Assembly (NCBI GenBank): GCA_905178155.1
Contig: CAJINV010000002.1
Coordinates: 11,720,591-11,784,590, forward strand
Direction of reading: 5' to 3'
DNA length: 64,000 bases
From: Amoebophrya sp. A120
Lineage: Eukaryota; Protista; Dinoflagellata
Shown here: positions 1 through 61,400 of the stretch, in pieces
Layout of the letters: every line of letters starts with the position of its first letter
Numbering within the stretch: the first letter of the stretch is position 1
The notes under the pieces: model-generated
The model's database searches: none
What the model saw: only the letters and a program-made list of their open reading frames with translations
What the model was told of the DNA's origin: nothing
Made by a program: the position numbers and the translations under genes

Positions 1-3000
1 CGAAGTTCAGCGCCTCGTCCATCGCTTTGGTGGTGCCCGCTCCGCCGAACGTGGTGATGTCAAAGTCGGTTTGCCCGCCGCGGAGCCCGAGCTCCACCAT
101 GGAGATCACCAAGCGGATGCGTTGGTTAGCCACGATCGGTGCCTGGATGTTGATCGAGGCCCCGACCGGGGGGTTCAGCGGGTCCACGATCGCGCCCTCC
201 GGGTTCAAACTCAGCGGCAAGGCCGCCGATTTGAAATCAAACCCTGGCGGATTGTTGGCGACCAGCCGCACCTCGGACGCGTCAGAAACCGGCGTAAACT
301 CGACTGTGATCTCACTGAACGCGCGGGCGGCCTGCTTCGAGCCGGTGAGCGATATACTGACGCTGGAGAGCTGAGGCAGGATTTCCCACGAACGAATCAC
401 CTCACTGGAGAGAATCTGGGCAGTGGGTTGCTGCGACAATATGGTGCTCCACTCGTACACGCCCGCCGAGGTGTCGGTGCCTGATGATAAATTTTGAATG
501 AATGTCGTGCCTTCACCGCATCGCGAACCACCAGAGCGACGCCATTTGATCATTCAAGTGTACTATCGCCATTTGATTTCTTTTCCACCGCTATCAGACA
601 AGCCTCAACAACATCAAAAGAGGACTAAAAAAAATAAAAAACGTCGCACCTAGTAGCGCATCCAGAAAGCAGTTCCACGTGGCTCCCGGAAGGGCACATG
701 GAGGATGGATAATGGACTTGTCAATGCCTCGCCAGTGCCAGATGCGGAAAAAGTTTTCAAACAAGAACGGCGTCTGCGAGGGATTTCTCGTATCAATGCT
801 CAGTTGGAATTGCGTGTCCTTCTCGTGCTGTACGTTTTTTTGATGATTCGAATAAATAAAATTTCAAAGAACTTGTGGGAGCAAGGCGAATGGTGTGAAA
901 CATCTAGCATGCTGGACGGCAGTGCACAGTTTTCGAAATTCGCATTCATTGTTGAATTAAAAAAAACATCAGTATAAGCAATTATTGTACCGCGATGCCC
1001 CCCATTGCGGCCGTCTGAATTTCAAACATCATCAAATTCCTGGTGCAGCGCGGTCCGGTTCGGTGACCGTTCGGCAGGGCAGCCATGTCTCCAAAGTTCT
1101 TCTGGGGGTCCAGCTGCTGCGCAGCGATGGTTTCCAGCGTTGGCAGCCACTTAAAGGCGGAGCACTGTTTCCGCGCCGGCTCGGCGAACTTGGACTCCAG
1201 CTTGAAGCCCGTGGGGGCCTCGATGACCACGATGTCACCCGGGTCCACCCGGTTCGGGAAGGCGAACGTGAAAGTTAAGTCCCGCACCTCCATCATGCCG
1301 TTGCGGACCTGCACGCCAGATTCGTCGCGGTTGACCACCATGGGCACGACGAGGGGGGGCGACCCGCTCCGGATCTCGATCGTGACCGGGTTCACCATGA
1401 AACTCGTCACGTCCGACTCATCCAGCGCCCCGGCGGCCGCGGCGGTCTCGTCCACGAACGACTCCAGCTTCCACACGTACTTGTGGTTCGTGCGCTCCTG
1501 CAGCGGGTTGTTCACCTCGATGTACTATCAAATGCAAAAATGTCTAGGTCTGGAAGAGTGCATGCTTGTCATGCTTGTCTGGCATGATTCTCAAATCTGT
1601 CATGCACGTTACCCAAGAGCGCCACTTTTCTGCCATGCAGAAACGCAGTTTGTCATGCAGAATAGGCAACACCTAGAAGCTCAGAAACTTGTCATGCTGC
1701 GCCAGCACTTGTGGCCTGCTCATGATACGCCACCCAGCATCACAAGTTTCCAGACCCAGACATTTTTGCAGTTGATATGTACACCCGGTAGTCCCGCCCC
1801 GTCTCCATGGAGGAGCCGATCAATTTCAGGTTCGTGATCTTGTCGTCCGTCTGGGACACGCGGCAGCTGGTCTCGTCCTGGCTCCAGCGCCGGCCGAAAT
1901 TCGTGCGCCCCTTCTCGTCGATCCAGTCCAGCTCCTCCACGTGGGCCGTGCACTCGAAGTTGGCGGCGACGAACCGGAAGTTCTGCTGCTGCAGCGACTG
2001 CGCCGCTGCGGTCACGCGCAGAATCTATCCTGAGGAAAAACGTCCCCACACCAGAGTCAATCTGCAACACAAATCTCCAGGTTTTGGGAGTTCTGCATGA
2101 CAGGCTTCCATCTGCAGTGTAGGGCTGGCTAGCAAGTAAAGCCGCACGAGAAAGCCACTTCCTCATCCTGTTTACAGCATTACAAATGCCAGAACACGAC
2201 TGGATATGCCTCTCATGGAGATGCGCATGACAAATGTCCCTGTCCTTGCGCATTTGCATGACAACTCTGGGGTGGGGATGTTTTTACATAGGATAGAATC
2301 CCGTTGATCGGGACCGTGTTCCACGGGCGGAAGGTGAACTATGGCGCTCTCAAACGTTACATTCTCAACTGTTACACGATTTGTCATGCAAAATTGCAAT
2401 TAGTTATCAACACGATCAAGCTGCCTCGCATGACAAGTTTTCGCCGCACTAGATAGCATTATAATCTGCGCCAAACTTGTAATGCAAAAGGCGCAACTTT
2501 CCGCCTTGGATTTTTGCCATTCTTGCATTACAAATCCATGTAACAGTTGAGAATGTAACATTTGAGAATCCCATATGAACCGCACCGGGTTTGACACCGG
2601 GATGCTGTCCGTCGCGGCCTGCCGTCGGGCGGTCGACACCGGCTTCACCTCCAGCTGCGTGAAGGTCCACAGCGTGAACCCGACGAACGCCATGGAGGAC
2701 TCGTCGCTCACGTCAATCGTCCACGTGTTCGGGTTCGGGGTCACCGGCGGATTCGCCAGAATCCCTATCCTAAACGCGTACACGTCGTTGGCTGGAGTGA
2801 TTGTTGTAGGTATTTCGAGAGAACGTTTGCACACAAAAACTACTTGACATCATCTTCTATTTGAATTTCGATTCTACTTCTGCAATAGCACTAGCAGTCA
2901 CGGTTACAGTAACTGTGATCTTTTGTTTGCCAAACCAAGAACTCAGAAAGCGTGTATATTGAATTTCCTCAAAAATTATACCGACTAAAAACGGGCTGTG

Positions 3001-12813: not shown

Positions 12814-13950
12814 ATGCCGGAAGGGTTTTCATGCAGCGTATTTCCCCCGCTCTCCTCGCGGCGATGGATCACCGTCATTCACCGCCTGCCGTCCATCTTT
12901 AGCCTCTCGCCACACACACACAAAAAATATTGCTGTCAGATTTTATTGGGTGAAGAAGATTCAGAATGAGCTAGCCTCTTCTGGTCAACACGGTTGTAGG
13001 GTCTATTTCTATACGCAACAAACGAAGCCGCGCCAGTCGCCAGGATTGTCGCAGAATAATTTTACTTACTTCAAATGCCGTTTTGGATAGAGGGGTGGAA
13101 GGTTTGCGAAAATCGAGCTTGCGCTAAGGGAGGATATTGAATTCAACTCGACAAGGGTCGTGCAAACGTTTGGATTCCGGGGGGGGCAAAAAAGTGAAAG
13201 TCCTGTGCTAGGGGTACTCATGCATACATATGAGCAGACCGGGAGTGTAACAAGAAATACCAGGACGCTTTTTCGATACTTGTTGCTTCTCTCGATACGT
13301 CGAAGCAAAGCAAAATCACAACCGACGATGCAAGACAGTCACGACGCAGTTCTCTCACTCTCCTGGGCTCTCGAACTGTCCTCTTCTCGGTGCCAGCGCT
13401 CTCGGTCATACATATGCTCTCGCTCTCATCGCTCGATTACTTTCTTTTCCGTGCATAAGGTCGCGCTTTGTGCATCAGTACTGAAGGCTTACCACTTCAA
13501 GGCTTGAAACGCCACGATGCGACATTTATCTCGCAGAACAATAAAGCACTTTTCCAGTCGCTTGTTTTTTCTGATGAAGATAAACGCGGGCGAGACAGCG
13601 ATGCTCGAGCAAGGTACGATTGCGCCATATATCTTAGAGCTTAGAAGACCAGCTATGGCGTACGCAACTGATGTGCCAGATCGTATCCCCTCCGGGCTTC
13701 TCGGCGGTCGCGCAATTTCGTTCATCATATGAGCCCGCGCTTCCGCACGCAGCTTCATCCCCGCAAACTTGCACAAGCGCCGTCCCGCCGATGGCCGCCC
13801 GCGGGCGCCACCCGGCTCGCCGAAGCGGAAGCCCGCCGCGCGGGAGTTCCACCAAAGCCGACCCGCCCTTGCGAGCTACGGCTTGGCCGCCGGGCCTCCG
13901 CAAATATATCGCGCGGCAGCTAGAAAACACGAATGCCCCGCACGCTAACT

Positions 13951-14273
13951 AGGGCGGGGGAAGGGCAGGGAAGGGGTCGGGAGAAGGCAGGGAGACGAGA
14001 GGAGACTAGGGAGGTGCTAGGGAGGGGCTAGAGAGGGGCTAGGGAGGGGCCAGGGAGGGGCTAGGGATAGGGAGGGGGGTAGGGAAGGGGCAGGGAGGGT
14101 GTAGGGAGGGGGGTAGGCAGGGGGTAGGGAGGAAGTAGGGAGGGGGTAGGAGGGGGGTAGGAAGGGGGTAGGAAGGAGCTATGGGGGACATGGAACACCT
14201 GGAAAATTCCAGGAAGGGGGGTAGGAAGGGGGTAGGAAGGGGTTAGGGGGGCATGGAACACCTGGAAAATTCC
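13951..14273 (+). repeat. G-rich purine tract (agggaggggct / agggggtagg units) with a 22-bp direct repeat
   Basis: Degenerate 10-11 nt G-run repeats with G-quadruplex-type runs. catggaacacctggaaaattcc occurs at 14189-14210 and 14252-14273. Confidence 0.85.
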
Positions 14274-14379
14274 GGAGTGTTGTTTTAGCGGATTTCTCCG
14301 TATTAGAATGGCCCACGATATCACTATGAGAGTCATTTCATGCGTATGCGCTCCCTCACATACCAAAACGCCATCCACG

Positions 14380-14930
14380 CATTAAATTTTTTTCGGCTTT
14401 CAAAAATTTCAAAAAAATTGAAAATTTTTCAAAACGCAAAAAATTGAAGAATTTGCGCGGAGTTAGAGCGTTAAAGTACTGCCAGCCAATAAATATGCAA
14501 TACACTATACATCTGGATGACTGTACTCGTTTTAATTAAGTAGACAAGCACAAAGTCTCAAAATTGTTTTTTTGGAAAATTTTTAAAAATTCCAGGATCA
14601 CTTCTTTTTGCTATATTTATGTGATAAAAACTCGCAATACTACGAGATTGCACTTAGCTGCTTTGAATCGCACAGCCTAAAAGCCTGGAATTCCAGAAAT
14701 TTTGCAATATTTTTCTGAAGTTGCATTTTTATAATTTTTGAATCTTCCTGGAGGTTCTGGATGTGCGGAATATGTTACAAAGAAAAAACACACCAGAGAA
14801 GTAGCTTGCGTATTTGTTTCCTTTCCTATTCTGTGTTTTTTCATGGATTCTTGAAGAATATCAGGGAACTTTCTGAATTTTGTAAATTTTTTAATTTTTG
14901 GAAAATTTTAAAATTTTTGCCCTATATGGA
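14380..14930. promoter_or_regulatory. AT-rich core of the divergent strand-switch region (putative bidirectional initiation zone)
   Basis: Non-coding, dense A/T tracts that are A-biased on the left and T-biased on the right. Lies between the 5' ends of the minus-strand and plus-strand gene blocks. The function is inferred. Confidence 0.4.
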
Positions 14931-15069
14931 TGATCCACATATACTGTTGCGATACAACCAAAGCACGTGCATTATTCTTTGCATTTTCACCAATTACAGG
15001 CGTCCAAATGAAGAAAAACGCGGAAACCGATAGGATGCAACTTCTCAGCTCATTTTCCACGCTCACCAT

Positions 15070-15270
15070 TCTGCCCTCTTTATCCCTACCTCCCCTCCCC
15101 CCCGATCACCAACATCGTCCCACCTCAGGTATACCCTCTTTCTACCCTCCCCATACCCTCTTCCCCCTGCCTATTCCCTGCTTACCCCCTGCCTACCCCC
15201 TGCGTACCCCCTGCCTGCCCCCTGCCTACCCTCTCCGAAAGGGCCCCCCTTCCCCCCTGCTGCCAAGCCC
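15070..15270 (+). repeat. C-rich pyrimidine tract (cccctgcctaccccct units), compositional reverse complement of the 13951-14250 tract
   Basis: Repeated ccccctgccta/ccccctgcgta units resemble the reverse complement of the ggtaggcaggggg units at ~14110. Confidence 0.8.
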
Positions 15271-19399: not shown

Positions 19400-22300
19400 A
19401 TGCCTGTCCGCGCGGCACCTTTATTTCGCTACGATACCACTTGGTGTCTGCTCCATTGCTTCGCTCTGCTGTTCGCTTCACTGCTGGACGCGCGAACCGC
19501 TCAAGCCTTGGAATGCCGCGTGAACTTTCATGGGACCTGCCGGCAGCGGGCGTACTTGCTGGAGAAATCACTGGAGGATCTGGAAAACCTGTGGATCGAC
19601 ATATTACAGTGAAAAATGCCCCCACCCCGGAATTTGCAGAAGTTTGTCATACAAAGTTTCCAAATGAAAGCTTTTTGTCTTGCATAAAAGGATTGCGAGC
19701 GTTTCTGATGCAGAATCTGGGTGCGCAAGGTGCCTTGTGCATAACAGATCCGGCTGCTGTTGGGCTACTTCGCAACACAATAAATTTGACCTATTCAGCA
19801 TGGAAAATTTGTGATGCTGAGATATGCAAGACAGGGAATGTCTCTGTTGGAAAGGTTTGCCATAGAAATGCTCCCAAGTTCGGGGGTGGGGGCATTTTTC
19901 ATTGTAATACGACACGAGATGCGACCGGTCTTCACGGCCAGTGGACACGACAAACCCGGGGGCGCTCGCCGCTGCTCCCCGGAGCTCGGCCCGCTCGTCT
20001 TCGCCGCGTGCGCACGGCATGAACGCTTTGCAAATGAGGGAGCGCCCGTTGTTGTCCAGAAACGAGAACTTCGCTTTAGAGCTGTGGCGCTACTGCGGAA
20101 ACAGCCACGCGGACCCGATCACACTCGAAGTGTTCAAGACCGAGGTCGTGCAAAGCGACGGAACCACGGCAGACACCATCGTACAGGCCGACCAGTGGCC
20201 GCGAAGGGAGGATCTGGAAAAGCTGCAGAACCCTTACAACCAGTGGCTTCAGTTTGGTAAGACCGCGTACGAAATCAACGCGGGCGCCGCGCCAGACCAC
20301 CGAATGAGCTTCCATTGGGGACAGTACGAGCTCTCGCAGTTCTCGGACTACGAATTGGGTGCGGAGGGCTGCGACGACGTCAGTAATGGCATAGACTGGC
20401 GGGTCCTAAGGAGGTTTTTGCTCGTGCCCGACCGGAAGTGGCAGTGCGAAAAACTAGTCCGCGATCCGGCAAAATGGAACTTGATCACGATACTAGGTTG
20501 GTATAGTTTTGGTCTCTAATGATATTCGCTTGTTGTTTTGTATTTGTTCCTCTTCCTGCGTAGCACTCTAACTATAAAACATCCGGTGCAGCCAGCGTGT
20601 GTGTGTTTGCTGCTAGCTTGTTACGTCGAGTCAGCTGAGCAGGCCAGAAAGTGTCAGAACATCAAACCACTCCGCATATAATTCTGACAGAACAGTCCCT
20701 GGAACACCCGCAGGGAAACTTTCCGTACACGGGTGTTCGCGACGACTGCTACCTGGGCACGGTGTCCTTCTTCCTCCTCGACACCTTGTGCGCGGAAACG
20801 CCGGACGACTTTTTCAACAAACTGAAAAACGTCCTGCTCTACCTGGAAGGGTTGATCTTTTACGGCGACGCCGACAGTGAGGTCCGGCAGGAGTTTGGGG
20901 ACAGCAAGGTCGAAATGGGCAAGGCGATCCACGACTATGACAGTGAACATTCAGAGGAGCAAAAGTACCGCGCCAGCGTCTACTCCGGGGACGTTTTCAA
21001 CGCAACTGGTATTTCCGCTGGACGAAATGCTGACGCTGCAACAGAGGTGGCGGCGTCACCAGACACAACTTCGCAAAAGTTTTCGACGAAGGAGCAGGCT
21101 GCCTTCGAGTGGAACCGGGGAAAGGAACACTGGCAGCAACTGCAGGGCGGTGGAGACGAGGAAGTACTAGAGCAGGGCAGTCTAATGTCCAACACTCAAG
21201 CTGGTACTTCTCCGGGAGAAGCCGCCGAAGGATCCTCGCCACCCTCTGCAACTTACCCAGGCTCGCACACGATTCAAGATTACATGCAGGGCACGAGTGC
21301 AGCGGGAGAGACCCGGTCGGCGAGCGAAAAGACCGCGCGGAAGGCGGGTAGCAACTTGCACGCGTACTCGTCGCTCGTGATGCAGTCCGGATGGCCAGTC
21401 TTTGTGCTGTTCAATGACATCTCCGAAGTGGTCACAGCGAACATGCTGCCGCACTTGCCGAACCAGTGCGACTTGCTGGATACGGACTCCGACGTGGCGA
21501 AAAATTCCAACTTGTTGGAGTTCTTCACCAACTACACGAAAGGCGTTTATGTCGGCGTGGAAAAAGAGCATCACATCCCGCTGGTGAATCCGGACCGCGT
21601 CCTGAAATTCGAGGAGGCCGTGAAACAGTGGGGAAAGAGTAACCAGGGAGATGTGTTAACGACCGATAGTAGTACAACTACCGCAGAAGTCACGCAGCGA
21701 CGGCCGCCCACGGAGGTAGCGCAGGCAAAGGACTTTCAAGGAAGGGCGTTCAGTTCGGAGTCATCAACAACATCTCCGACAGCAGACAGTACCGCCACTA
21801 GCAGTCGCGCACAGCTCCCGCCTTTACTTGACTTGGAGAAGGTGCTGGTTCGTTCGAGACAAGGGAATCCCACCTACCGCGCAAAGATCTCCGTGGACGC
21901 GGAGTCTCTACTCAACGACCCGCGGAACTGCCCCTTCGCGCAAGCGGCCGCGGCCTTCGTTGGCGCCTACAAGGAGGTCGACCTGAAAGATCGGCAGGCG
22001 TGGGTGTTCCTCGCGTTCGACTTGCTTAAGTCCTGGGACGCGTTCGCCACGGACCGGTCCGGGTACGACCGCCGTTTTTTCTACGATTTGCTGACGACAC
22101 GATGGCCTATTTTGCGGTTCCTGGCCAGCTGGTTCGAGGAGCAGCAGGTGTTTCAGTTTCCGGGCCGGTACGACCGCAAAGAACAGCTGCTGCGCGCACT
22201 CAAGCAGAACCAAATTTTCATGAGTGGGAAGGACTTTCCAGGCATTCGCTCCAACACGGACCATGAGACCTGCAGGAAAAATGAAGAAAATTTTCTGCCC

Positions 22301-36347: not shown

Positions 36348-37622
36348 ATGAGTCCGGTTACGGGAGACAGATGTGAAGATGAAAATGAGGTGGTGATAAT
36401 TCTCACACGGGAGACGGGCAGCAACGCCAAGCTGCAAGATGCGGTACTTGAGGGGATACACCGACGTGATGCAGAACTTGGACAGAAAATCGCAGTGCGG
36501 TTCCTGGAAGCGCCGGCCGTGTGTTTCCGTCCGCTGCCAATCGAGCGGAAGTTGCTCGAGGAAGCCGACGGAGAAAGATGCTTTTCTTGGGTGTGCCTCA
36601 CCTCGCCCGAGGCTGCGAGGCAATTTTGTCGTGCGCTAACCGCAGACCCAGGGCTGTTTCTCGCTTCTCTCCTAGGTGGAACGACGGGCCGTGCGAGCGG
36701 AGATGAAACCGCCACTGCTAAACATGTTGAGGCGGCAAGGATAGCCTGTGTGGGTGAGGCGACAGCGGAAGCGCTGCAAGTAGCTGTTGAGACGATTTTT
36801 TCTTCTGCTGCAGGAAACGAAGCTGGTAGTACCAATTCTGCTCCTGCCACACCCGCGCAGCGGCAAGAAAAAGTTGAGAAGCAGCTGCAAAAAGTCAAGC
36901 AGTGGGTGGAAACGCACAGTGCCGACTGCTTCATTCCCCCAACCGCAAATGCTAAGGCGCTCGGGAAAACGCTGCCGATCCGAGGACAGAAGGAGCCTGT
37001 CGATGGTGAGGGCTCCGCGCATTTTCCAAAAAATGTCAACCGAGTCCTTTTGCCCTGCAGTTCAGAGCAAAGGCCCGATTTAGCGCAGGGATTGACTTCG
37101 CGAGGCTTCGCCGTCGTGTCTCTCGCTACGTACGCTACGGGTGCGGTCGAAAGTCCTCCGTCGGAACTGGTGGAAAGCGGTTGCTTATATACAGGGCCGA
37201 CACACACCGTCGTGCCGAAGAGCACCCGGCCCACGTGTTTGTGGACATTTGCGTCCCCCTCCGCTGCGCAGGCGTGTTCGCGATGGTGCGAGCAGGGGAC
37301 AGATTTGCAGACGGGCTCGGTGCAGGCCGCTGCCTGCATAGGCGAAACGACTGCGGAAGCCTGTCGCAGGTTCTTTCCGCACGCAGAGGTTTTTTGTCCG
37401 GACGACAGTCCGGGGGTAGGTCCGTGGGCGGAGACAATTCTAGCGTGGCTCGCTACTAATACTAAACATGGCAAAGAGCAGCGGACTGGAGGTTGTAGTG
37501 CAGGAACAAGAACTGTAGTAGAAAATGATGATGTTCCGACGGCCCAAATGAGGAAGGGGGGGGCCGCCGAGAGCGTCCGAACTGCGTCGGGGGGGCGTTG
37601 CACGATAAGGCAAGCGGCTTAG
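36348..37622 (+). CDS. hemD: Uroporphyrinogen-III synthase, plant/algal type
   Basis: Motifs ILTRETGSN, WVCLTSPEA, ACVGEATA, PPTANAKAL, GLTSRGFAVVSLATYAT, ASPSA and ACIGETTA appear in the order typical of UROS/HemD. Confidence 0.88.
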   Translation: MSPVTGDRCEDENEVVIILTRETGSNAKLQDAVLEGIHRRDAELGQKIAVRFLEAPAVCFRPLPIERKLLEEADGERCFSWVCLTSPEAARQFCRALTADPGLFLASLLGGTTGRASGDETATAKHVEAARIACVGEATAEALQVAVETIFSSAAGNEAGSTNSAPATPAQRQEKVEKQLQKVKQWVETHSADCFIPPTANAKALGKTLPIRGQKEPVDGEGSAHFPKNVNRVLLPCSSEQRPDLAQGLTSRGFAVVSLATYATGAVESPPSELVESGCLYTGPTHTVVPKSTRPTCLWTFASPSAAQACSRWCEQGTDLQTGSVQAAACIGETTAEACRRFFPHAEVFCPDDSPGVGPWAETILAWLATNTKHGKEQRTGGCSAGTRTVVENDDVPTAQMRKGGAAESVRTASGGRCTIRQAA

Positions 37623-44000: not shown

Positions 44001-47000
44001 CAAAAATGTCTGGGTCTGGAAGAATTCGTGTTTGTCATGCTTGTCTGGCATGATTCTTAAATCTGTGATGCACGTTCCCCAAGAGCCCCATTTTTCTGTG
44101 ATGCAGAAGCGCAGTTTGTCATGCAGAATAGCCAACACCTAGGAGCTCAGAAACTTGTCATGCTGAGCCAGCATCTGTAGCCTCATGATGAGACGCCACC
44201 CAGCATCACAAGTTTCCAGACCCAGACATTTTTACTTTTGATAACAAGAAGGCGGCGGCAAGTGCGGCCGCAGCTCCCGTTGGATCAAACACTGCTGCGC
44301 CCCCACCGGCGGGGAAAGCGGTAGCGCCCGCGGCTGCCGGAAATGGGGCTGCCGTTATTACAATGAAAAATGCCCCCACCCCCGAACTTGCAAGCATTTG
44401 TATTGCAAATCTTTCCAAATGAAACATTCGCCCTCTTGCGTGTATCAGCATCACAGATTTCCGATCGTGAATAGCAAAAATTTGTATTGCAAAAGATCCC
44501 AGCAAGAGCGGTGCTTGTCATGCAAGCGATGCGAAACACGACTAGAATCTGCATCAGAAAGATTCGTACTCCTTTCATGCATGACAAAAAGCTTTCATTT
44601 GGAAACTTCGCATCACAAATTCTTGCAATTTCAGGGGTGGGGGGCATTTTTCACTGTGATAGCCGTTGTAACGAATCCAGGCAGTGCAGCTGGCGCAGGA
44701 CAAGGCGCGGCTGCACCGCCCGGAGCGGTGACTAGTGGAGTTGGACTCGGGACGGAGTTGACGCAGGCGGTTTCCAACGTAGCCAACGCCCTTTTCGACG
44801 GTTCTGGCCAACACGGGAACGGGCAAAGCCAGAGCGGCCAGAGCGGGCAGCTACTTACGACAGCAGGACAGGTGGTTGGAAGTGCGGCAGCTACCGCGGT
44901 CGGTAGTTTCGCAACGGGGCTCCAGCGGGGCTGGCAGGCTGGACGTACGGCACCACCTCCAGGCGCTATCGCAACCGCAGGGACAAATCCAGCGGCCGGG
45001 GGGGGCGCAGTTGGAGCCACGAACCCAGGTGCGGCCGCTGTTGCGGCGCCGGAAGGATTGGGGCAGCGCATGGCACAAGCGGTCGATAACCAAATCCCGC
45101 ACCTGGCAGCAGGGACCGAGGCCATCGCGGCGGCGGTGGGCGAAGGGGCAGTGGCCGTCTTGAGCGCCGCACGGCAGGGCGCGCTGCAGGGAGCGGGCTT
45201 GTCGTCTGCCGTCAACACCGGAGCCGCGGCCCCCGCAATTACTGGCACCGCCAACGCCGTAGCAACTCCGAATATCGGCAACGCAGCAACGCCGACCGGC
45301 AACGCAGCTTCGTCGCAGACGATGCAGGACTCGATCAGAGCACGGATTCCAGAAGTAGTAGAAGCCGTCCAGCCGGTCGCCGATATGGAGAGAAAAAAGT
45401 TTATCATAGTCACTAATTTGCAGGGTTTGCATTACAAATTTTCTTAGCATCACAAATTTTCCTTGTATTGCAGAAACACTAGGGAAATCCCTAATAAAGT
45501 TTGGCTGTGATGCATTTTTACGCATGACAATTGCAAAAATGCGCATCAGTGATCGTGACGAACTTTTTTTGTTTGATAGCCGAGGCGAGCGGCGCACTAC
45601 TACGAGCCAGCGCAATAGCCGCGGGAACTAGCGTTGCCAGAGGGCTTTTCTCGACCGCGGATCCTGCAGCCACAGTACCGGCATCACCGCAAGTAGCACC
45701 TCCGGAAACAGGGGGTACCGTGGCGACACAAGCGGGCGCGGGACTCGCGGGTGCACCGCCAGGACCAGTAGCGTCTGTGCAAAATGGCGCAACACCTGCC
45801 CCCGCGACCCCTGCGCAGACGACGCAGGAGTGGATCAGAGCACAAAGTCCAGTTGTGGTAGGAGCGATCGAGCCAGTTGCGCGGGAGGGCGGTGCATTAA
45901 TACGAGCCAGCGCAATAGCCGCGGGAACTAGCGTTGCCAGAGGGCTTTTCTCGACCGCGGATCCTGCAGCCACAGTACCGGCACCACCGCAAGTAGCACC
46001 TCCGGAAACAGGGGGTACCGTGGCGACACAAGCGGGCGCGGGACTCGCGGGTGCACCGCCAGGACCAGTAGCGTCTGTGCAAAATGGCGCAACACCTGCC
46101 CCCGCGACCCCTGCGCAGACGACGCAGGAGTGGATCAGAGCACAAAGTCCAGTTGTGGTAGGAGCGATCGAGCCAGTTGCGCGGGAGGGCGGTGCATTAA
46201 TACGAGCCAGCGCAATAGCCGCGGGAACTAGCGTTGCCAGAGGGCTTTTCTCGACCGCGGATCCTGCAGCCACAGTACCGGCACCACCGCAAGTAGCACC
46301 TCCGGAAACAGGGGGTACCGTGGCGACACAAGCGGGCGCGGGACTCGCGGGTGCACCGCCAGGACCAGTAGCGTCTGTGCAAAATGGCGCAACACCTCCC
46401 CCCGCGACCTCTCCGCAAACGACGCAGGAGTGGATCAGAGCACAAAGTCCAGTTGTGGTAGGAGCGATCGAGCCAGTTGCGCGGGAGGGCGGTGCATTAA
46501 TACGAGCCACCGCGATAGCTGCGGGCCGGAGCGCTATCGAGGGTCTTTTTCCGACCGGGAACAGTGGAGCTGCAGCACCTGCAACACGGACGGAGGACCC
46601 GGAAGGGATCGCAGCTACGGCCACGGTCGCGGCGCATGCCCCAGTCGCTGGGGGTGCAATCGCGCCGCCGGATCCCGCTGCGGTGCCTGTCGCCGCAAGC
46701 CCAGAACAGCGGACGACGGCAGAATCTATTGCGGCACAAATACCATACGCCACACAAGCGGTCGCGCCGGTCGCGACAGCGGCTGGACAACTTCTTCGCT
46801 CAACTGCGATAACAGCTGGGGAAGGTCTCGTGGAGGGCCTTGGCTTTACGACACGCGCCGGCACGAATCCGCAGGCGGCCACAAGCGCTGCTCAAGAACC
46901 GCAAGTACCCGCGACAGGCGCAGAAGCGTCCACCCTTGGTGCACCAAGTGAAGATCGTCCCGGACAAGAAGTCGGAGACCAGTCGTCGTCCGTGATAAGA

Positions 47001-49163: not shown

Positions 49164-50065
49164 GCACACTAGTTTAGACGCGCGGTGGAATACTCGACTT
49201 GTATGATTGACTGCGTTCTCGCGACGTGGCCGGGGCCTTATCGGGGTAGGTTCAGAGTTGCCTACAGCGGAAGTTGTGTAGCAGAGAGCTGCACGGGCAG
49301 CATCGTGTATGACTTTTAGCTTGTCAGGACCCCAAAGATGAAATGCCTGCCCAGCAAGTTTTGGTGATTTTTGGAAGAGCATTACACCATTTTGAAGCGA
49401 CAAAAATAAAACGACAATTTGGCACGTTCTCGTGGCCCATAGAAACTAAATTAGAGTATAGAACTGCCGAGCAGAGGAGTGCTGCTCGGTTGCAACGTTC
49501 GGTAGCCCCGGCATTGCAAGAGTAAGTAGCCATTTAGTTTCTCCCCCGTCTAGTATGATGAATTAGTATTCTTCTACGGTGTTTGAAACCGCTTTTCCGT
49601 AAGACAGATTTATGGCAACCCCGTTTGAGTACCCAACATTGCTTCCGTACCCAACATAAGCCGCCTACTACTTTTAGATAGTCGAAAAACCTTCGCTGAT
49701 CTTGGTAAAAACCGCAATGCAATCTTCAAGAGACTTGGGAACTAGCAAAAACCACATTCTCCATGAAAAATGAAACAGTATGCAAAGAACGCGCTCCGTT
49801 ACCGCTTTGGATTGTTAGATGGCGGTGTGCAGCAACGGCAAGCGTTCGCTTCTTCGTTCGTCCGAGGAGATTCAGAATTTCGGTATGTGTGTTGTATCGT
49901 CGAACATGCGAGCCCCTCTGTAGACGAAAAGACTACTGTAAAAATTGCGCACGGCTCGCTCACGTCAAATGATGTCTAGAGATGGTGGCCTCGTCTCGTA
50001 GAAGGTTTGTGCATCGCGTCCTGTCGTGATCGTCTGCTCTAGCTCATCTATTATGATGCTTGAAG

Positions 50066-53011
50066 ATGGTGCGACCGCGAAAGAGGAGGTCTTGTTTATT
50101 TTCGGAGATCATCTGGCTCTTGGTATTGATGTCGCATACGAGAAAGAGCAAAGCACGAGCTGCACAGGAAGCATACAACAGCACCAGCGCGTTGCTGAGA
50201 GGCCGGTGTGACTTTGGGAGCCGTCAAAGTGTCGGTTCCGCAACGGCGTACACGAAGCGTGTGCACCTGATCTGGAGTAACGGTCTGGGCGACCGGAAGG
50301 ACCTGAAGGCCGGTTCGGTGACTGATGCGGATATCGACCGTCTGCTTGAAAAGCCCAAAAAGGAGGTCCTCGCCAGAGTCGCCGCGGCTGATGTGGAAGC
50401 CCTGCAGAGACATCAAGACGGAACAAAGGACCACAGCGTTGTTCTCTGCTCTCTCCTGGGTACGGCAGATCCAGAAACGACCATCCCGGGCTATCTCCTG
50501 CCGTATTACGGAACGATTGTGGACAAGTTCCAGAATTACGAGGTATTCCTTTGGGACGACGCCGGGATAAACGAACTGGTTCGGTGGTCGCGCGACCCGG
50601 ATTTCTGGGAAGACGCGGTTCCAAAACCGCAGCCGCAGCCCTATACCAAATTTTTTGCAGAACTTTCTTCTTCTCCGTCAGGAGTGTTCGGGTCGACGTC
50701 GGGTGAGGGAGGAAGGACGGCGAAAGCGTCGTCGACGTTAACTGATGTGGAGCTCTTCCAGCGATACTACTTGGACCAAAGCCCGGCGACCAATTTCACG
50801 AAGCGGTTTCCGGGAGTTCACCCACACGAGCTGGTCAGTCGGTGGTTCAAGGACGACAAAATCTCCGAGACCGTGAAGTACCGCGACGTCTCCAAGTTTC
50901 TTGTGCTGTACCGCTACGGTGGCATGTTTCTCGACCTGGATATCGAGATTCTCCAGGACCCCACGCCTTTGTTCGAAACGCTGGTCGCAGGAGGTGGTGG
51001 AACAACGACTTCCCGTAAAAGTGATCGCGAACAGCAGAAAACAGCGTCCGTTGTGGTCGCACACCAGGAGCAGGGGCGACCGCGCTCTGATCCGGTGGAG
51101 CTGCTACATCATGGAGCGCCTAGCTATGCCAGCAAAGGAACAACAGCCCCCGCGATCGTGTTGGATCCGAGCACCGCGGCGATCTACTCGCACCCGCGGC
51201 ACCCGTTCTGGGTCGAGATCTTGTGGTACATGGACGCCACCATCACGAAAGAGCTGCTGCGCCCGGAGCCCGTGCTGGCGGTGGCGCGGGAGCGGAAACT
51301 GTCGGTCCGCGGCAGGTGGATGGAGGAGCGGACGCAAGCTACTCGTGCTTCCGGACCGTCTTTTGTCGCGGTGCCAGTGGAAAGGGACGCGTCTTTGATG
51401 TTCGAACTTCACGAAGTAGCGATCGCCGAAATCGCATCTGGAAAGGGCGGCTTTGAGGACTCGTCTCTCAGTTCCAACCGCGCAACCAGTAGAACAGGAC
51501 GTCGAGCAGGGACGACGACAACTTCTGCTGCAATTACATCGCACGATGTTGCGGCGCCAGAGGTTTCTATTACAGTTATCTCCAGTGCAACTGACGTCTC
51601 GAAATCTGGACCTGGAAAGCTCCACTACCGGTCGCGGCATTACCAGTTCGTGGTGCGCATGTTTCGGCACGCGTACGAGCGAAGCGTTTTTGGAATCCAG
51701 GGATGGAACCGCGTCTTTTTCCTGCCGACGCAGTTTTTCAACCCCTTGGAAATTGAGTGGCAAATGCTCCGGAACGCCATCCTGCGGGTGAAGCAGCAAG
51801 CCAGGACTGGTGGAGTGTCTGCTTCGAACCGTACACAGGAGCACGTGGCTGTCATGGTTCAGCGAAAGGAGCACGCACTCGCCGCACAGCTTGCTCTGGT
51901 GCAGCCTAGAATTCCTGTTGGCAAGGGCGGTCGTCGAGGCAGTAGCGCTACAACAGCGCATCCTGAGTACTGTGCACGGAAGTACGGGCTCACAAAACAA
52001 ATGTGGAAAGTGGCAAATGCTTTATATCACAAAGCAGGACTAGCGCAACGCGACCAACAGCAGGTAAAAGTAGCGGCTTCCAAGTCTGCGACCACAGAGG
52101 AGAAGGGGGCTCTCGAAGGTGCAGACCTCGGACCGTCGAAGCTGGATCTCTTATGGAAGCACGTGGACTTCAGCACCTATCTGTTTTCCTATCACCGGTG
52201 TTACGGCGCCTTCTGCCACGGCGCGTGGGCTGCGGAGGAGCGGGAGTGCCTGGCCGTGTCCGCGCTTGACCGTCACACCTGGATGCAGAAGGATCAGCCG
52301 CATGGATTTATGAAGTTTTTCTACACCGCACGGAAACAGGATGTTTTAATACAGAAAAGGAATCAACAGGCGCAGCGAAATCCGGACGGCGCTGAAAGGA
52401 ACCACAATTTCACGGTCGCGAGACGAGAGGAGAGCCTTGCGGTCGCTACCGCTTCTCGTACAACAACATTTAGTGCCGCTACAAGCAGAGGCGGATCTGG
52501 CGCTGTTGGTCCTTTGGACAAAAGAACAGAGGTCTCCAGGAGAAAAATCGCTGCTTTGTCTAGTTTCTCCGCAACCGTGCTGCGCCGGAAAAGGCCCTTT
52601 GAGGAAATGGAGAATTATCCACCGAGGGAGGATGTGGAGCGGAATGACGACGATTCGGTCCTTGATCTGTACTACCGCATGTGCGATGAGGATGAAGAGA
52701 CAAGCGTTGCGCAAGCAAATATTGAAGCGGGAGGCTTGGCTTTGTATAAGAAAAGTGATCGAAGTCGAAGTGCAGCTGCCTGTCTCACCGCAGTCGCACA
52801 GAACAGGCTGGCCGCTTCTCTGGCCGCGCATCTGCGGCCCGGTGGCGGCGATTTGCGATCCCAAATTTTTGCGGTGCACCACTACGACGGCTCCTGGCTG
52901 CCTGGCGCAGGCGGCCACGCATCGGACCGAAAAGACATAAAGTCGCGACTGCAGCTACGTGCGTATTTGCGTAAACGTGAACAGAAGGAGCACCCGCCCC
53001 GTGCACTGTAA
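50066..53011 (+). CDS. Glycosyltransferase family 32 (DXD sugar-binding; Och1/Sur1-like)
   Basis: RVHLIW, LWDD, RDVSKFLVLYRYGGMFLDLD, HPRHPFW and AVHHYDGSW motifs, with an N-terminal hydrophobic anchor. Confidence 0.82.
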   Translation: MVRPRKRRSCLFSEIIWLLVLMSHTRKSKARAAQEAYNSTSALLRGRCDFGSRQSVGSATAYTKRVHLIWSNGLGDRKDLKAGSVTDADIDRLLEKPKKEVLARVAAADVEALQRHQDGTKDHSVVLCSLLGTADPETTIPGYLLPYYGTIVDKFQNYEVFLWDDAGINELVRWSRDPDFWEDAVPKPQPQPYTKFFAELSSSPSGVFGSTSGEGGRTAKASSTLTDVELFQRYYLDQSPATNFTKRFPGVHPHELVSRWFKDDKISETVKYRDVSKFLVLYRYGGMFLDLDIEILQDPTPLFETLVAGGGGTTTSRKSDREQQKTASVVVAHQEQGRPRSDPVELLHHGAPSYASKGTTAPAIVLDPSTAAIYSHPRHPFWVEILWYMDATITKELLRPEPVLAVARERKLSVRGRWMEERTQATRASGPSFVAVPVERDASLMFELHEVAIAEIASGKGGFEDSSLSSNRATSRTGRRAGTTTTSAAITSHDVAAPEVSITVISSATDVSKSGPGKLHYRSRHYQFVVRMFRHAYERSVFGIQGWNRVFFLPTQFFNPLEIEWQMLRNAILRVKQQARTGGVSASNRTQEHVAVMVQRKEHALAAQLALVQPRIPVGKGGRRGSSATTAHPEYCARKYGLTKQMWKVANALYHKAGLAQRDQQQVKVAASKSATTEEKGALEGADLGPSKLDLLWKHVDFSTYLFSYHRCYGAFCHGAWAAEERECLAVSALDRHTWMQKDQPHGFMKFFYTARKQDVLIQKRNQQAQRNPDGAERNHNFTVARREESLAVATASRTTTFSAATSRGGSGAVGPLDKRTEVSRRKIAALSSFSATVLRRKRPFEEMENYPPREDVERNDDDSVLDLYYRMCDEDEETSVAQANIEAGGLALYKKSDRSRSAAACLTAVAQNRLAASLAAHLRPGGGDLRSQIFAVHHYDGSWLPGAGGHASDRKDIKSRLQLRAYLRKREQKEHPPRAL

Positions 53012-53211
53012 TTTGAGCTAATAGCAAAAAGCTGTTCGTGGTGGATATGTACTTACTTGCGCTCCTCAACCGCAATGCGCAAGAGAAAGGTATTCACTTC
53101 GGATTTTCAGCGTGTGAGGATCCGCTTTGATTTTTTGGAATCACCCCCCTGTAGACCGTGCGCGATGTCTTAGCGATAACGACGTTGGATTCACGTACTT
53201 ATTCTAGCCCT

Positions 53212-55858
53212 ATGGACAAAATGCGTGCACGACAATACAGGTCCTATTCGTTCCCCAGTCGTTCCGTGGGGTGCCGGTTCGGGACGCTGCTGCTGAGCGG
53301 GATTCGCTGTGCGTTGTTGCTAATGCCTCGGGTTCTTGTTCTGTACCTTCACAATGTTGTCGCGTCGGCGGTTCCGGAGGAGCACGAACCGCCCGAGCGG
53401 TTCACTGCAGCGAATATCGAGCCGTATTCGGGAGTGTCGTGGATGCTGGGCCGCATCGTCGCCGCAGATGTGCTGGAGCGAGTGCTGTTTCTGGGATACC
53501 AATTTCCGGCGGAGGTGGAACTGCGTCGAGAAGCAGTGGATATGGAGGACGAAGAGGAGACTGCGTTTCTTCAGGAGGATAACGCAAGCTACTCAGGTAA
53601 GGCAAGATCCGCGAGGACGGCAGAGATGTTGCCAGCCCAGTTGCAATTTGACTCCTACTTTGTCCACCTCGCGCCAACTTACGTGCGGCAGATGCGGTTG
53701 ATATTCGCAGACGTGCGTCGCGTCTTCGGGACGCAGTTAGAAAGAAGCGAAGCTGCCTTGCGAAGCTTTTGGCGTGCTGCCTTGGACGACTTGTACGCCG
53801 GAGGGCGGGGGGGCTCCGCGGATTTGCCAGCACAAAGCGCGAGCGACGTTCGCCAAAATATGCCTCTGTCACCGCTGCTGCGCACCAAAACCGAGACCAA
53901 TGCCGAGCACCAACGAAACATGTACCATCGTGGGCTGCGGAGCGTGCCGGTGCACTCGTCCGCGCCGGAAGGCCAGGCTCTGTCGGAGGAAGCGCAAGCG
54001 GGTGCCGCCGCCACCTCCTGGGAGATGTCAGTTTCTGAAGTCTTTCACGCGTTCAACTACTCAAGCACCCTAGCCGTAGGACCATCATCTGCGAGCCCTT
54101 CTGCTCCACAAGAGCGGTCACCGCACAAAAGCGCATATGTGACAAACAAGAGATACCGCTTGATAGACGCAGCGCTCGCACTGCTGCACAGTGACCGATT
54201 TGGGCCCTTCACGGCGACGCTGCTCGAAGCCGTCCGCACAACCGTCGAATGGGCCGAGGAGCGACGGTCTGACGACCCGCGCGGCGCAGTCATTCAGTGG
54301 ATCAAGCCGGGGAAGCGGCTCTTCGAGGTGCGGCAAACTCCGCAGACCGTGACGGTCGCGTTGCAGCGCCGCGACCCCTACTTTGAGACATTTCCCTCGG
54401 CGTCCGTGTCGGAAGAGGGGCAGAACCCGGTCGAGTACCTGTTTCTCAAGTCGTGTCTGACCAAGAGTTTTTTCCAGTCGGGCGTGCGGCTGGAGGACCT
54501 CGACATGGCCAAGCAGCGGAAAGAGGAGTCTGCCAACATCGGATTCGCGGTAGCCTCGACGGTTCTGCGGGAAGTGGACGCGCCGCACGCACTGGTCAAC
54601 GGGGGCCTGCTCAACCTCGTCCGCCACTGCACGATCAAGGACTGGGACATCGATTTTGTGGTAGACCGGAAGTGGATGCTGACTAGGAGCACGGAAACCT
54701 CGGCGAACGACCGCTTTCTGTTCAACAGCGAGCGGATATCTGCCAGATTCGGCTTGTACCGGCTTTACGCCTTGTCGGTGCAATCTTGGATGAGTGCTTT
54801 CGGTGGTCGCGCCGGACTAGAACCAGCACAGGCGAAAGAATTACAAACTGAAGCCGTACTGCACGGCAGTAGCAGTGGCAGCGGTCTTCTGCCTCCTGGC
54901 ACCTCTTTGACCACGTCCGCAACGCCAACGACCGCAGACTTGAATGTCACTGACAGAGAGAAGGATCTCGCGGCGCAGCTCGTGACCATGGAGCGGGCGG
55001 CGGACCCGAGTGTCGACCAGAAAATCGTCCCAATGGACGCCGCGTGGCAGGAGAGCTCGGGATCTATGCTGGACCTCTTGCCGCAGGTGGTGGAGGAGTC
55101 CTATTACTTCGACCGCTATGGGTATGCAAGAAAAAAACTGTGTAAGGGTAAGTCTGTGATGCAGAAAATGCAAAACAGTTACGCTTGTCATGCTCTACAT
55201 GCATGATAGGCTCGCTTCCTACGTGTTTTCCCGTCCTATCTGCGCATGACAAGTTTTTCCTGTCATGGCAGACGAACTTGTGATGCTGTTTTCCCAAAAG
55301 ACCTACACTAACACAGTTTTTTTCTTGGATAATGGCCGCACCGTGGAGACCTTGGACGTCGGAATTTATGACGAGCTACGGAACAACGTGGACTTAATGA
55401 AGGTAGACCTCTTCTACGGACGGGTGTCTCCGTCGCTGGGCGTTGACAGTACAGGAAATAAGCAAGCACGAGCGACGCGGCCTGGCATCTTTGACTCCGG
55501 TGAGGGCGATGACGAAGATGCTCTTGAAGGAGGAGCCACAGTTGGAAGAATCGCGGGGGAAGAACACATAAGCAGTGGCAACTGGAACAGCTGCGGTTTA
55601 TCTTACTACATGTGTGGAAACAAAACGATAGAGTGCTGTCTTGCGCCCTTTACGAGGACCGTGCTGAAGCCGCGTCCGCGAATCGTTGAGCGCATCGTAA
55701 CTTTCAGCTACGACGAAAACAAGGTCGTGCGTATTCCTTGGCCGCCGGACGCTGCTCTCGATCATTACTACCGCGGAGGGTTTATGTGGCCCCAACCTGG
55801 GTACGGAACGGAGAAGCATGTGCTGGCATGGAATACCGCGTGTAAGGTTGCTCTCTGA
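53212..55858 (+). CDS. LicD/fukutin-like nucleotidyltransferase-fold protein (two exons)
   Basis: NGGLLNLVRHCTIKDWDIDF resembles the LicD GxLLGxxRH...DxDxD motif. C-terminal IPWPPDAALDHYY. The two ORFs join across the introner at 55123-55331. Confidence 0.7.
55123..55331. mobile_element. Introner/MITE family F (209 bp)
   Basis: TIR tatgcaagaaaaaaactgtgt / acacagtttttttcttggata. Imperfect TSD atggg (55118-55122) / atggc (55332-55336). Removal gives FDRYGRTVETLDVG in frame. Confidence 0.9.
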
Positions 55859-56538
55859 AGAGGAAAAAAAGAGGATGACTTTACTCATTTAGCTCTCTTA
55901 TTTGGTCAACACGCAGTTTCTTTTTACAGCGCTAGCGTCGTGTCCAAGAAGGAACTTGCAAGGAGCTGACGCATAGAAATCTCGGAATGTCTCCCCACGG
56001 GAAGAAATGTTATCCTTACGCGACCGCTTGCTTTCAATGCAGTGGGGAACGTAAAACAACTGCAGCGCAAGCGAAGACGAGGCATAGATGGAGATAAAGC
56101 ACAACAGCGCAAGGACGAAAATATCAGCTGGCCCTCCAGTGCAGCATTGCGTCGTGAGGAATTTTTGCTGGTGCAGCTAGATGTATTGAGAGAGTGGGAC
56201 TAGCACGTTGCGATTTTTTTCTTTTTTACGAAAGTCACAGAGTTGTGAGTAAGCAAGGGCGCAAAAACTACGCGCTTTGTTTTTCACGAGGTTTTTTACT
56301 GAAAGTAAAACATACGTCGAATAGAAGATGAAGATTTTTGATGATACCTACAACAGCATAGCCCACCGGGATCGGATCGATCCTCGTCGGTGTGGCTCCC
56401 CCGAGACGGATCAGTGTTGGTCTGGGTGGCGACTACAGTGTTGAGTTTGTTTACAAAGTTCGTTCAGGAGGGACGAAACAAATACAAATCTAAGAGAACC
56501 GGCCTCGGGCCGCACCTTCTACTTGCGAAGGATCGAAG

Positions 56539-58472: not shown

Positions 58473-61400
58473 ATGGTCATGACTGCTTCCACGATGCTTT
58501 GGCTCGTCAACTCTATCTTCGTGCTCTTGAGTTGCGAACGCTTGAGTTTTGCGTCGTCCGCGAACCGAATTAGGCACCAGCGTTTCCTGACGCTCGACGA
58601 GTACGACCGGTTTCTGGCCCAGAAGCGGGTCCAAACATGGACGAAGCAACTCGCGAAGAGAAAAAAAAGCGTGGGAGCTTCCGTGTCAAAGTTTCGGCAG
58701 TGGGTCGCGGCGACAAGGAATGTTCGGCGGAAGACGCCATCAGCGGCAAGAAGCGAAAGACAACAGCACCATCCAGAGAGCCGCGTTGTGCCTCCTGTAG
58801 CCGACGATGAAGCTGCAGAGGAGCCGCATGCGCCCCTACGCTTGCAGCTCGAGCGCAAAGTGCGGAGATGGATGCGCAGCGTGCGCGATTTGAACCGCAA
58901 CGAGATGCTCTTCGCTGTGATGGCCAGCCGCACGATGGAGTGGCGGGCGGTGGTATCCAGGAAAAAACACCCATCCCCATCTAATTTGTGATGCAAATAA
59001 AACATGCATAATTTGCACGGTCGTTTGTCATGCAAAAAATGGATGGGGATTGGTGTTTTTTCCTGGATAGGTGGCGATGGAGGACCTGGTTCTGAAGAAA
59101 ATGCCGCACGTGCGCTACGTCGTCGAAGAGTACCTGGACAACCTGCCGCGAGAGCGGCAGTGGAAGGTGCACTTCCGCAAGCAGGCTTCGCAGGTCCGGA
59201 AGTCGAAGAACAAGGACGTGTGGAAGGTGCGGAAGGAGTACATGAAGGTGCAGCGGCAGCAACTCGAGTTCATCACGCAGCACCCGCATTTGCCGCGGGA
59301 GATCGAGTGGGTCATGTTGCTGGACGACGACACCTGGTTTGACTGGGACCAGATGAGCCGCATGCTGCGCACCAAGGATCCGACCGACCCGGTGCTGTTT
59401 TCCTACATTTTGTCCGACGCCCAAGTCATCGGCTACGACTACCCGTGCGGCGGCGCCGGCATGGTGATGAGCCGCGCCGCCTACGACCTGATCTCCAAGC
59501 CGTTGGCCGACGACTCGATCTGCCCCTTTGTGAACTTCAACGACCTGACCCTGGGACTCTGCCTGAGCACCTTTCAGGTGCCGATGGTGCATTCGGAACT
59601 GATGCACTGCATGCCCACTCTGAACATGGCCAGCCGCTCGTGGGAGAACCTGAACGACGTGCAGGAGCAGGTCGCGTTTCATCGGTTAATCGCGTCCACC
59701 AACCTGGATGGTTTGATCGACATGCTTTCCGACCGCTCGCAGGCGCTGGAGCAGATCGCGGGCCTGGGGGCTGGCTGCCGCATGGCGCCGAAACTTGCGA
59801 CCAGTGACCACGTGGACTCGCGGATGCTCATGCTGCACGAGCGCATGCTACCTAGATTCGTCGAGAAATGCAACCGAGCAGCGGGAACAGGAGCCTTCGC
59901 AGGGCCGACAACATCCGGCCATGCAGCGTTCTCTAGCAGCACTAGAAGCAGTCTCGTGTCCTCGGTCGCGCGCTTCAATCCGGAGGCTGCGTGGCGAAGC
60001 GATTTCGATCCGGGGCAGAGCAGCCTGCTGTTCCAGCTCTTCGACGACTTTCATATTCCGCACATGCAGGCCCGGAAGTTCGCTCCCGCCGACTCGATCT
60101 ACAGTCGGGCGACAGCGAAAACCTTGCCAGTTTGGCTCGAAGGCCTTGTCCGAGCAGAAGGTACTTCTAGAGCATCATCCCCTAGCGGCGGAACCACGGA
60201 AAGTTACAGCCGGCGCCACGGCCGCCCAACGGCGCGGTTGCAGATGCGGTGGAAGTTGCGGCTCATGGCGCAGCGCGCGTTTCCGGCCGCAGACCGGATC
60301 TCCTTCAGCAAAGACCACGAGTTCACGCGCGTGCTGCGCCAGCAGCTAGACATGGACGGCAAGAAGACAGAAGAACTCGATGAATTGCGCCTCGAGGATG
60401 CGTTAAGCAAACGCTTTTCGACAGATAGAGTTTCTGGCTTACCGGACTGGGTCGATGTCGTGGTGCGTAATTTCAGGGCGATGTCCCCCCAGCGGAGCCA
60501 TGGAGTCAAAGATCTTCGCACGAGCAGTTCGAGTGCAAGGGACAAGACCAAGTGTGGGAGTTCCTGGACCTTTCTCAGCTTCTACGCGAGTACAACTTAC
60601 GTGAACTTGGAGTTGATGCAGAACCTTATCCGTGACTTGCACGAGCTCTTTCCTTGCGAACGATCCGTGTCAAAGGACAGACTCGATCTTCGTCCCGATA
60701 GTGCTACCAAAATAGAGGAGCTGCACGACTTGATTTTCGATGACGATCCCATTGCAGCAGCGAAAAGTAATCACGCCGACGAAAGAACAAGCGAGATGAA
60801 CTTTGACCACACTGCGGAACCTCAAAAAAAGCAAGGGCGCGACGAAAATGCGGACGACCCCACCACTTTCGACCTGGTGTCTGGCCAGCCGCCTTTAGCC
60901 GTTGCCTACATTCACACCGAGTCGCACATCGAGCCGGCAGCTGGGGTGCTGCTGAACGAGCAAGGAATTCGAAGATTGGAGACGTGCACCGCGAAGGATC
61001 AGCGAAGAATCGAGTTGCACCCGGAGATCCACAAGTTCATTTCCGTCACGGACGAGCTGAGCGTGAAGTTTTGGAAGCAGAAGAAGCTCCACTTGCCGCA
61101 GTTGCAGCTGCAGGACAACCTGCTCGGCGTGGACGTCTATAACGTATTGAAATTCTGTGGCGTCTTCCTGGTGCACTCGCGCCGCTTCGCGCCGAATCTC
61201 ACCGGTTTGATTACATATTCCACTTGGCGCCGGCCGCACCGCGCTCCTATCTCGGAGCTGGTCACAGCCGGGCAGGTTTGGAATCACCAGCGCATGGTGG
61301 CACTCACTATTTACGGCGAGGAACGGCAAAAGTGGCTCGCACTGGAGCAGACTGGTGAATTTGTCGAGCCAGAAGCTGCAGCAAGAGACAGTAAAGTCCG

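Follow-up and report, generated by a model that had tools for sequence, protein, structure and literature searches.

Introners in the marine parasitic dinoflagellate Amoebophrya sp. A120 were described on a genome scale by Farhat et al. (2021, PMC7789003), who reported 29,850 copies in 1,954 families as hairpin-forming, RNA-supported, non-canonical introns with an inverted repeat that reads TAT, 7 nt and a run of A, and with 5-bp direct repeats in their Fig. S19. Gozashti et al. (2025, PMC12130899) list A120 families of DNA introners of 105 to 320 bp with terminal inverted repeats (TIRs), including a family 38 that is annotated "5-bp TSD, TA/TA Termini" (TSD, target site duplication), classed as Ginger and credited with an open reading frame (ORF) similar to Copia/Gypsy; general background on introners is given in PMC9860276. 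Outside Amoebophrya, the nonconventional introns of euglenids (PMC11282704) and the non-canonical introns of Fritillaria (PMC13326754) are likewise derived from miniature inverted-repeat transposable elements (MITEs), bounded by TIRs and TSDs and devoid of GT-AG. We analyzed a stretch of 64,000 nucleotides of the A120 genome (contig CAJINV010000002.1, positions 11,720,591 to 11,784,590; hereafter the window), in which nine short elements of this kind interrupt coding exons.

The nine elements belong to the introner class already known from A120. They share with it the organism, the start of the inverted repeat (TAT, 7 nt and at least 3 A) and a direct repeat within the 3 to 5 nt described, and they are repeated and removed from transcripts mostly without GT-AG; they also resemble in length and structure the TIR families of Gozashti et al. 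The text of Farhat et al. gives direct repeats of 3 to 5 nt and variable splice motifs and argues against mobilization by a transposase, whereas the TSD here is uniformly 5 bp. Similarly, the automated TSD calls of Gozashti et al. for families other than family 38 range from 2 to 11, most of these families being "Unknown," against 5 bp here; family 38 is likened to the window families by its description only, not by sequence. In the euglenid and Fritillaria systems the junctions show preferences (pyrimidine-purine with CAG/CTG, PMC11282704, and AG-AC/AG-AT, PMC13326754, respectively), whereas the TSD here is unconstrained. A preliminary description of the window, made from its sequence alone, had stated that Amoebophrya introners were reported with their mobilizer and splicing mechanism unresolved. 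The novelty was overrated, since this system is itself published, with its TAT start and 5-bp repeats, and a Ginger-like lead is already in print. The window adds examples of published elements and three modest, testable results, namely, that imperfect TSDs show the position of the cut, that ambiguity of register yields the variety of splice motifs, and that the families share an internal motif, TGTNATGC. Beyond the account of Farhat et al., the motif variety is here reproduced by register ambiguity and the internal motif links families. We found no earlier report of this motif, of a uniform 5-bp TSD across families or of the register explanation in the texts covered by our search, which left aside figures and subscription papers.

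Taken together, the results make it very probable that the nine elements are introners of the A120 type, short non-autonomous DNA transposons that leave the RNA along with one copy of the TSD; a single integrase-type transposase likely moves them, and their splicing likely proceeds through a terminal hairpin. The elements, an ordinary intron beside the first three and the shared motif have the following window coordinates.

1526..1777, minus strand: element 1, 252 bp, perfect 5-bp TSD; the host is a large minus-strand gene
2026..2295, minus strand: element 2, 270 bp, perfect TSD
2340..2575, minus strand: element 3, 236 bp, perfect TSD; the A run at +11 is missing from both ends
2792..2981, minus strand: 190-nt canonical GT-AG intron of the gene that hosts elements 1 to 3
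19602..19909, plus strand: element 4, 308 bp, perfect TSD; putative host ORF of ~290 codons
43992..44243, plus strand: element 5, 252 bp
44356..44661, plus strand: element 6, 306 bp, of the element 4 family in reverse orientation
45384..45578, plus strand: element 7, 195 bp, with the weakest TIR (16/25)
55123..55331, plus strand: element 8, 209 bp, imperfect TSD ATGGG/ATGGC (4/5)
58954..59069, plus strand: element 9, 116 bp; the host encodes a Fringe-like glycosyltransferase
1526..59069, either strand: internal motif TGTNATGC, 2 to 6 copies per element in all nine

The elements are 116 to 308 bp long, have a GC content of 34 to 49% (56% for the window) and run from TAT to ATA, with 16 to 24 matches per 25 positions in their TIRs. 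A scan of the window for TAT..ATA ends, a TIR of at least 17/25, a TSD of at least 4/5 and a length of up to 1 kb recovered eight of them (element 7 lies below the TIR cutoff), whereas not one of 100 local dinucleotide shuffles gave any, and eight of the nine were also among the 92 lax rows returned when the termini were left free. The published terminus, TAT plus 7 nt plus AAA, fits 16 of the 18 termini, both misfits being ends of element 3. The elements fall into seven families (elements 1 and 5 are 90% alike and oppositely oriented relative to transcription; elements 4 and 6 are 78% alike), all of which recur in loci of a related assembly. In run X6, the summed contig depth was very high over the elements, compared with ~47 elsewhere, which marks them as repeats and is not a measure of copy number. 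Deletion of the element and one TSD opened the reading frame at all nine sites; in the host of elements 5 to 7, all three must be removed to give 1708 codons. GT..AG ends are possible for element 9 only. In these respects the analysis reproduced what the preliminary description had claimed: nine elements with TIRs and TAT/ATA termini, seven sequence families, frames restored at every site and a single element able to take GT-AG boundaries. Its claim of a 5-bp duplication in all nine needs correction, since eight TSDs are perfect and that of element 8 carries one mismatch.

Evidence for removal from RNA came from contigs of run X3, the status of which as RNA is an automated guess; these contigs splice GT-AG introns, and their depth drops to zero in several of the intergenic bins. 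One contig (5098 nt) has 499 nt between window positions 2982 and 1519, where the genome has 1462, and 1462 is the sum of 499, 257, 275, 241 and 190, corresponding to elements 1 to 3, each with one TSD, and the GT-AG intron. For the other stretch of this contig outside the listed matches, 995 solutions were compatible in length, and the one that scored best has three GT-AG introns (157, 137 and 155 nt). At element 8, another contig, of depth 9.3, connects 55117 directly with 55332, skipping 214 nt (209 + 5), with 4 ambiguous letters at the joint and no additional ones. Exact removal of the element plus one TSD was thus seen in RNA-type contigs for four of the nine elements (1, 2, 3 and 8), none of which could adopt GT-AG ends. 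The hosts of elements 1 to 3, 8 and 9 carry RNA-type cover, but no RNA contig bridges the site of element 9. Separately, the element 8 gene ends in a stretch that resembles a GT-AG intron (55844-55929, plus strand); this stretch was kept in the contig that had lost element 8 and is either 3′ untranslated region or a retained intron.

The imperfect TSD of element 8 also bears on where the RNA is cut. The RNA retains the fifth base of the downstream TSD copy, and the cut must therefore lie inside the duplication: the RNA is severed 1 to 5 nt ahead of TAT on the 5′ side and 0 to 4 nt past ATA on the 3′ side, which rules out a cut at the edge of TAT. Imperfect TSDs across the genome can establish the true register in this way, as was observed once, at element 8. 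AT drift across 39 mismatched TSDs in a wider sample, described below, was rejected as a guide to register, being uninformative save at position 5 (4:0). We likewise rejected a symmetric cut leaving one extra codon, which is contradicted by the exact removal at the four RNA-supported elements and fits worse than the register-choice model presented below.

Public proteins bear on sites beyond those covered by RNA. P0001, P0015 and P0016, which are annotated proteins of Amoebophrya sp. A120 and not raw reads, show 100% identity to window proteins. The excision product of element 9 is identical to P0001 (1029 amino acids), and P0002, the A25 orthologue, aligns gap-free across the same site. P0015 and P0016 match the host of elements 5 to 7, and P0016 spans site 5 exactly as excision predicts. 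A further protein, P0017 (533 amino acids, from a 19.6-kb contig), is ~94% identical by eye to the latter host; it aligns gap-free past sites 5 and 6, enters element 7 and terminates there. P0017 appears to be an unspliced ORF call on DNA, and on that reading the relative would lack elements 5 and 6 and share element 7. Element 7 itself lies in a diverged copy of a 300-bp coding repeat unit, and the repeat just downstream is a gap-free paralogous empty site. (Directly after element 7, at 45589-46525, are three in-frame 300-bp coding repeats that are 98% alike.) The elements thus have the hallmarks of MITEs, being short, non-coding, bounded by TIRs and TSDs, and polymorphic for insertion, with sites 5 and 6 empty in P0017. 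The comparison with orthologous empty sites that had been proposed at the outset turned up a close relative empty at two sites, and the view that these MITE-type elements are non-canonical introns gains support from RNA-type contigs, public proteins and the empty sites alike.

For a wider sample, we used 150 loci (406 kb) collected by a 20-nt terminal pattern; the 79 loci listed form one contig set, and selection by the end of one family means that the largest families are over-represented. Matches between these loci and the window did not exceed 320 bp, and the best element identities were 77 to 94%. The loci held 438 TIR pairs, of which 133 over 450 bp were set aside. Among the remaining 305 short TAT..ATA pairs, 213 had a perfect 5-bp TSD and 249 had one with at most one mismatch; other TSD lengths were rare, 6 bp being absent (0/305). 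When the termini were left free, 187 of 192 5-bp cases started with TAT and 3 more with TA. The final set comprised 262 non-redundant copies (9 from the window and 253 from the related assembly) in 34 families, of which 47 could not be oriented, leaving 215 oriented copies, and 134 lacked a confident frame. One copy of 972 bp (L073, 4014-4985) interrupts RPB1 with a TIR of 25/25 and a perfect TSD; removing it with one TSD restores the conserved reading, whereas keeping both TSDs fails. Its extra internal sequence has an A-rich end and no Pfam match and is perhaps a nested insertion. We also noted a very dense cluster of elements with short exons between them (L064, 1993-5233) and, in run X6, other loci at which element ends are joined by just 15 to 40 letters.

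In this sample the copies show a strong bias toward exons, not exclusivity. A coding model scored 210 of the 262 sites as coding, compared with 356 of 896 controls, and 19 of 262 as clearly non-coding, compared with 364 of 896; the model scores window elements 5 to 7 slightly negative and so overlooks low-complexity exons. The earlier statement that no element is intergenic therefore holds within the window but not for the 19 copies with flanks that do not look coding. Orientation within genes was mixed in the three largest families (34:30, 17:13 and 13:13). The codon phase of the insertions was biased (66:37:25; P = 3e-5) relative to the controls (135:125:141); the largest group of insertions would fall in phase 0 for a register of −1 or −4, and the weak central A/T preference of the target seems too small to explain this bias.

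Across the 215 oriented copies, the TSD bases follow the flanks, apart from that mild central A/T excess, and show no sequence constraint. The GT-AG ends of a canonical U2 intron, which other Amoebophrya strains use (PMC12005148), are a possible reading in 16 of these copies, as in one of the nine window elements. An AG acceptor composed of the terminal A and a G at TSD position 1 was rejected; it occurs at 6/9 window elements (P = 0.024) but at 63/215 copies, against a background of 0.30. Gozashti et al. (2025, PMC12130899) give full dinucleotides for 11,578 introns of three A120 families, with NT in 69% at the 5′ end and AN in 68% at the 3′ end. We modeled this spectrum with the 176 perfect-TSD copies (excluding the 39 of 215 with imperfect TSDs), removing the element plus one TSD and choosing the most GT-AG-like register in each case. 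The register-choice model matched the published spectra with r values of 0.99 and 0.95, compared with 0.26 and 0.35 for a random register, and any single register fitted one end only. Given this fit, a random 5-bp target and register ambiguity suffice for the reported motif variety. The fit is compatible with a choice made by the aligner and by the cell alike, and the published variety of splice motifs should not be read as promiscuity of the spliceosome until this has been tested.

The internal motif connects the families. TGTNATGC occurs 35 times in the 2,144 bp of window elements and 3 times in the 61,856 bp outside them, and in the loci the figures are 1,387 per 110,884 bp of elements and 73 per 295,342 bp elsewhere; 257 of the 262 copies carry it, as do 32 of the 34 families, and its outermost copy usually lies 33 to 47 bp from the element end. 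The reverse strand contains a UNAC core as in the branch-point consensus, and we therefore considered a role as a branch point. This was rejected, as the sense-strand counts were 345 forward and 319 reverse and 34 copies carried a single form each way. With no sense-strand bias, TGTNATGC is better interpreted as a putative DNA-binding site than as a branch point, and its presence in 32 of 34 families means that it could serve as a probe in looking for the transposase or a binding protein.

We propose that a cut-and-paste DDE transposase would insert the elements through a 5-nt staggered cut and that this enzyme, of the IS3EU/GingerRoot/Ginger group, would bind both the element ends and TGTNATGC. 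The common ends and internal motif argue for one enzyme behind all nine elements, and both the termini and the length of the TSD suggest a member of the integrase-related group: IS3EU and GingerRoot have TA..TA termini and 6-bp TSDs, and Ginger2 has TSDs of 4 to 5 bp, all with integrase-type DDE enzymes (Kojima and Bao, 2023, PMC10045372). We judge this assignment reasonably likely. The termini of the sampled copies agree with IS3EU/GingerRoot (TAT in 187/192, TA in 3 more) and the TSDs do not (6 bp in 0/305 versus 5 bp in 213). The preliminary description had supposed one machinery for transposition and removal, and the uniform ends, TSD length and shared motif speak for it; neither a transposase nor a splicing factor came to light, and this part is still an inference.

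The key question is by what means introns that lack GT-AG are removed in a eukaryote that has tens of thousands of them. A modified spliceosome, guided by a stem of 25 to 30 bp instead of by GT/AG, might place both cuts, and if these always fell in a single register within the two duplications, the original exon would be rebuilt whatever the target. Terminal stems joining the intron ends, as in the euglenid type, were predicted for all nine elements (z of −5.7 and −7.2 in two folding tests); an Rfam search gave no match. To us, the use of the stem by a modified spliceosome with a fixed register in the duplications has close to an even chance of being correct. A relaxed but ordinary spliceosome that settles, at each site, on whichever register within the TSD comes closest to GT-AG, the hairpin merely bringing the ends near, is a less likely explanation. 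It would account for the advantage of the register-choice model over any fixed register on the 11,578-intron spectrum (r of 0.99 and 0.95), element 8 permits a GT donor at register −1, and Fritillaria non-canonical introns are reported to use a modified spliceosome (PMC13326754). However, an aligner chooses in the same way, so that the spectrum cannot separate biology from annotation, and neither G at TSD position 1 (63/215; background, 0.30) nor GT-AG-capable sites (16/215) are enriched. Removal without a spliceosome, by a stem-recognizing nuclease and a ligase that cut and rejoin the RNA, as suspected for euglenids, seems unlikely. The lack of any dinucleotide constraint, the lack of a strand-specific branch-like motif and the independence of orientation would all suit it, as would the failure to detect a U1 small nuclear RNA in A120 (Farhat et al., 2021, PMC7789003) and the euglenid introns, which have TIR stems and leave as circles (PMC11282704). 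Against it, A120 retains U2, U4, U5 and U6 (PMC7789003) and nearly all spliceosomal proteins, including U1 proteins, although the canonical introns alone could account for this retention.

Two further explanations deny that the elements are spliced at all. Excision from DNA at some life stage, in the manner of the internal eliminated sequences of ciliates, or joined contigs derived from empty alleles would likewise remove the element with one TSD, and the element 8 contig spans no canonical intron. Nevertheless, the contig covering elements 1 to 3 loses GT-AG introns along with the elements, the DNA-like run X6 contains identical contigs that pass from the flank into elements 1, 2, 3 and 4, and no clean excision was found among the joints listed in X6 (15 listed, 242 others), making such an origin highly improbable. 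It is harder still to credit that the insertions disrupt dead or untranscribed genes. The element 4 ORF is nearly without RNA cover and most host proteins lack a Pfam family, yet the hosts of elements 1 to 3, 8 and 9 have RNA-type cover, the element 9 host has a conserved orthologue, and copies interrupt RPB1 in the related assembly; for elements 1 to 3 and 8 this explanation is already refuted.

Several observations weigh against stem-guided splicing of transposase-mobilized elements. The RNA evidence consists of two contigs, both from a single run that is only presumed to be RNA; the removal of elements 1 to 3 rests on length arithmetic, and no RNA junction was obtained for elements 4, 6, 7 and 9 (there were only 7 and 4 reads in the raw-read runs X9 and X10, and runs X1, X2 and X4 had one or two small contigs each in the second region). 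The register is constrained by a single junction, which leaves five registers, and mismatched TSDs are uninformative about it at positions 1 to 4. Selection on the RNA stem was not apparent in a strand test over TIR positions 4 to 25 as a whole (191 G-U versus 184 A-C), a G-U excess being confined to positions 21 to 25 (43:14, a post hoc bin), and one family is skewed in orientation (3:12). As to the mobilizer, the TSD is 5 bp and not the usual 6 bp of IS3EU/GingerRoot, and the text of Farhat et al. (2021, PMC7789003) reports that no transposase was found in A120. The long autonomous copies encoding a DDE transposase that the preliminary description had suggested looking for did not appear in the 406 kb of loci, where no long or unpaired copy examined contained a transposase ORF: each of seven long pairs was nested, adjacent or without coding content, the search around 58 unpaired ends yielded no long ORF in the two loci that were listed, eight internal ORFs had no Pfam match, and no match turned up in viral contigs.

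We put forward only tentatively the broader idea that all TAT..ATA introners of A120 form one system, moved by an undescribed relative of IS3EU/GingerRoot that makes 5-bp TSDs and reads TGTNATGC, and removed at a fixed register by structure-guided, dinucleotide-free cutting. If so, the reported diversity of splice motifs would be a mapping artifact, and the transposon would be nearly harmless anywhere in an exon and in either orientation.

The ORF of ~290 codons around element 4 has a signal-peptide-like start and an RNA depth of 0 to 0.9, and a homologue search among longer proteins gave no match for the host of elements 5 to 7. Two glycosyltransferase-like genes (DXD motif, Fringe-like) lie within 10 kb, at 50057-53011 and 59071-61683 on the plus strand. 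A HemD (uroporphyrinogen-III synthase) domain is encoded at 36330-37622 on the plus strand, though the parasite is reported to be plastid-less. Finally, a block of minus-strand genes gives way to a plus-strand block at 13940-15260, where outward-facing 11-bp arrays, G-rich at 14006-14273 and C-rich at 15163-15231, flank an AT-rich core with A/T runs and no RNA-type cover, and the whole looks like a divergent promoter or an origin-like region.

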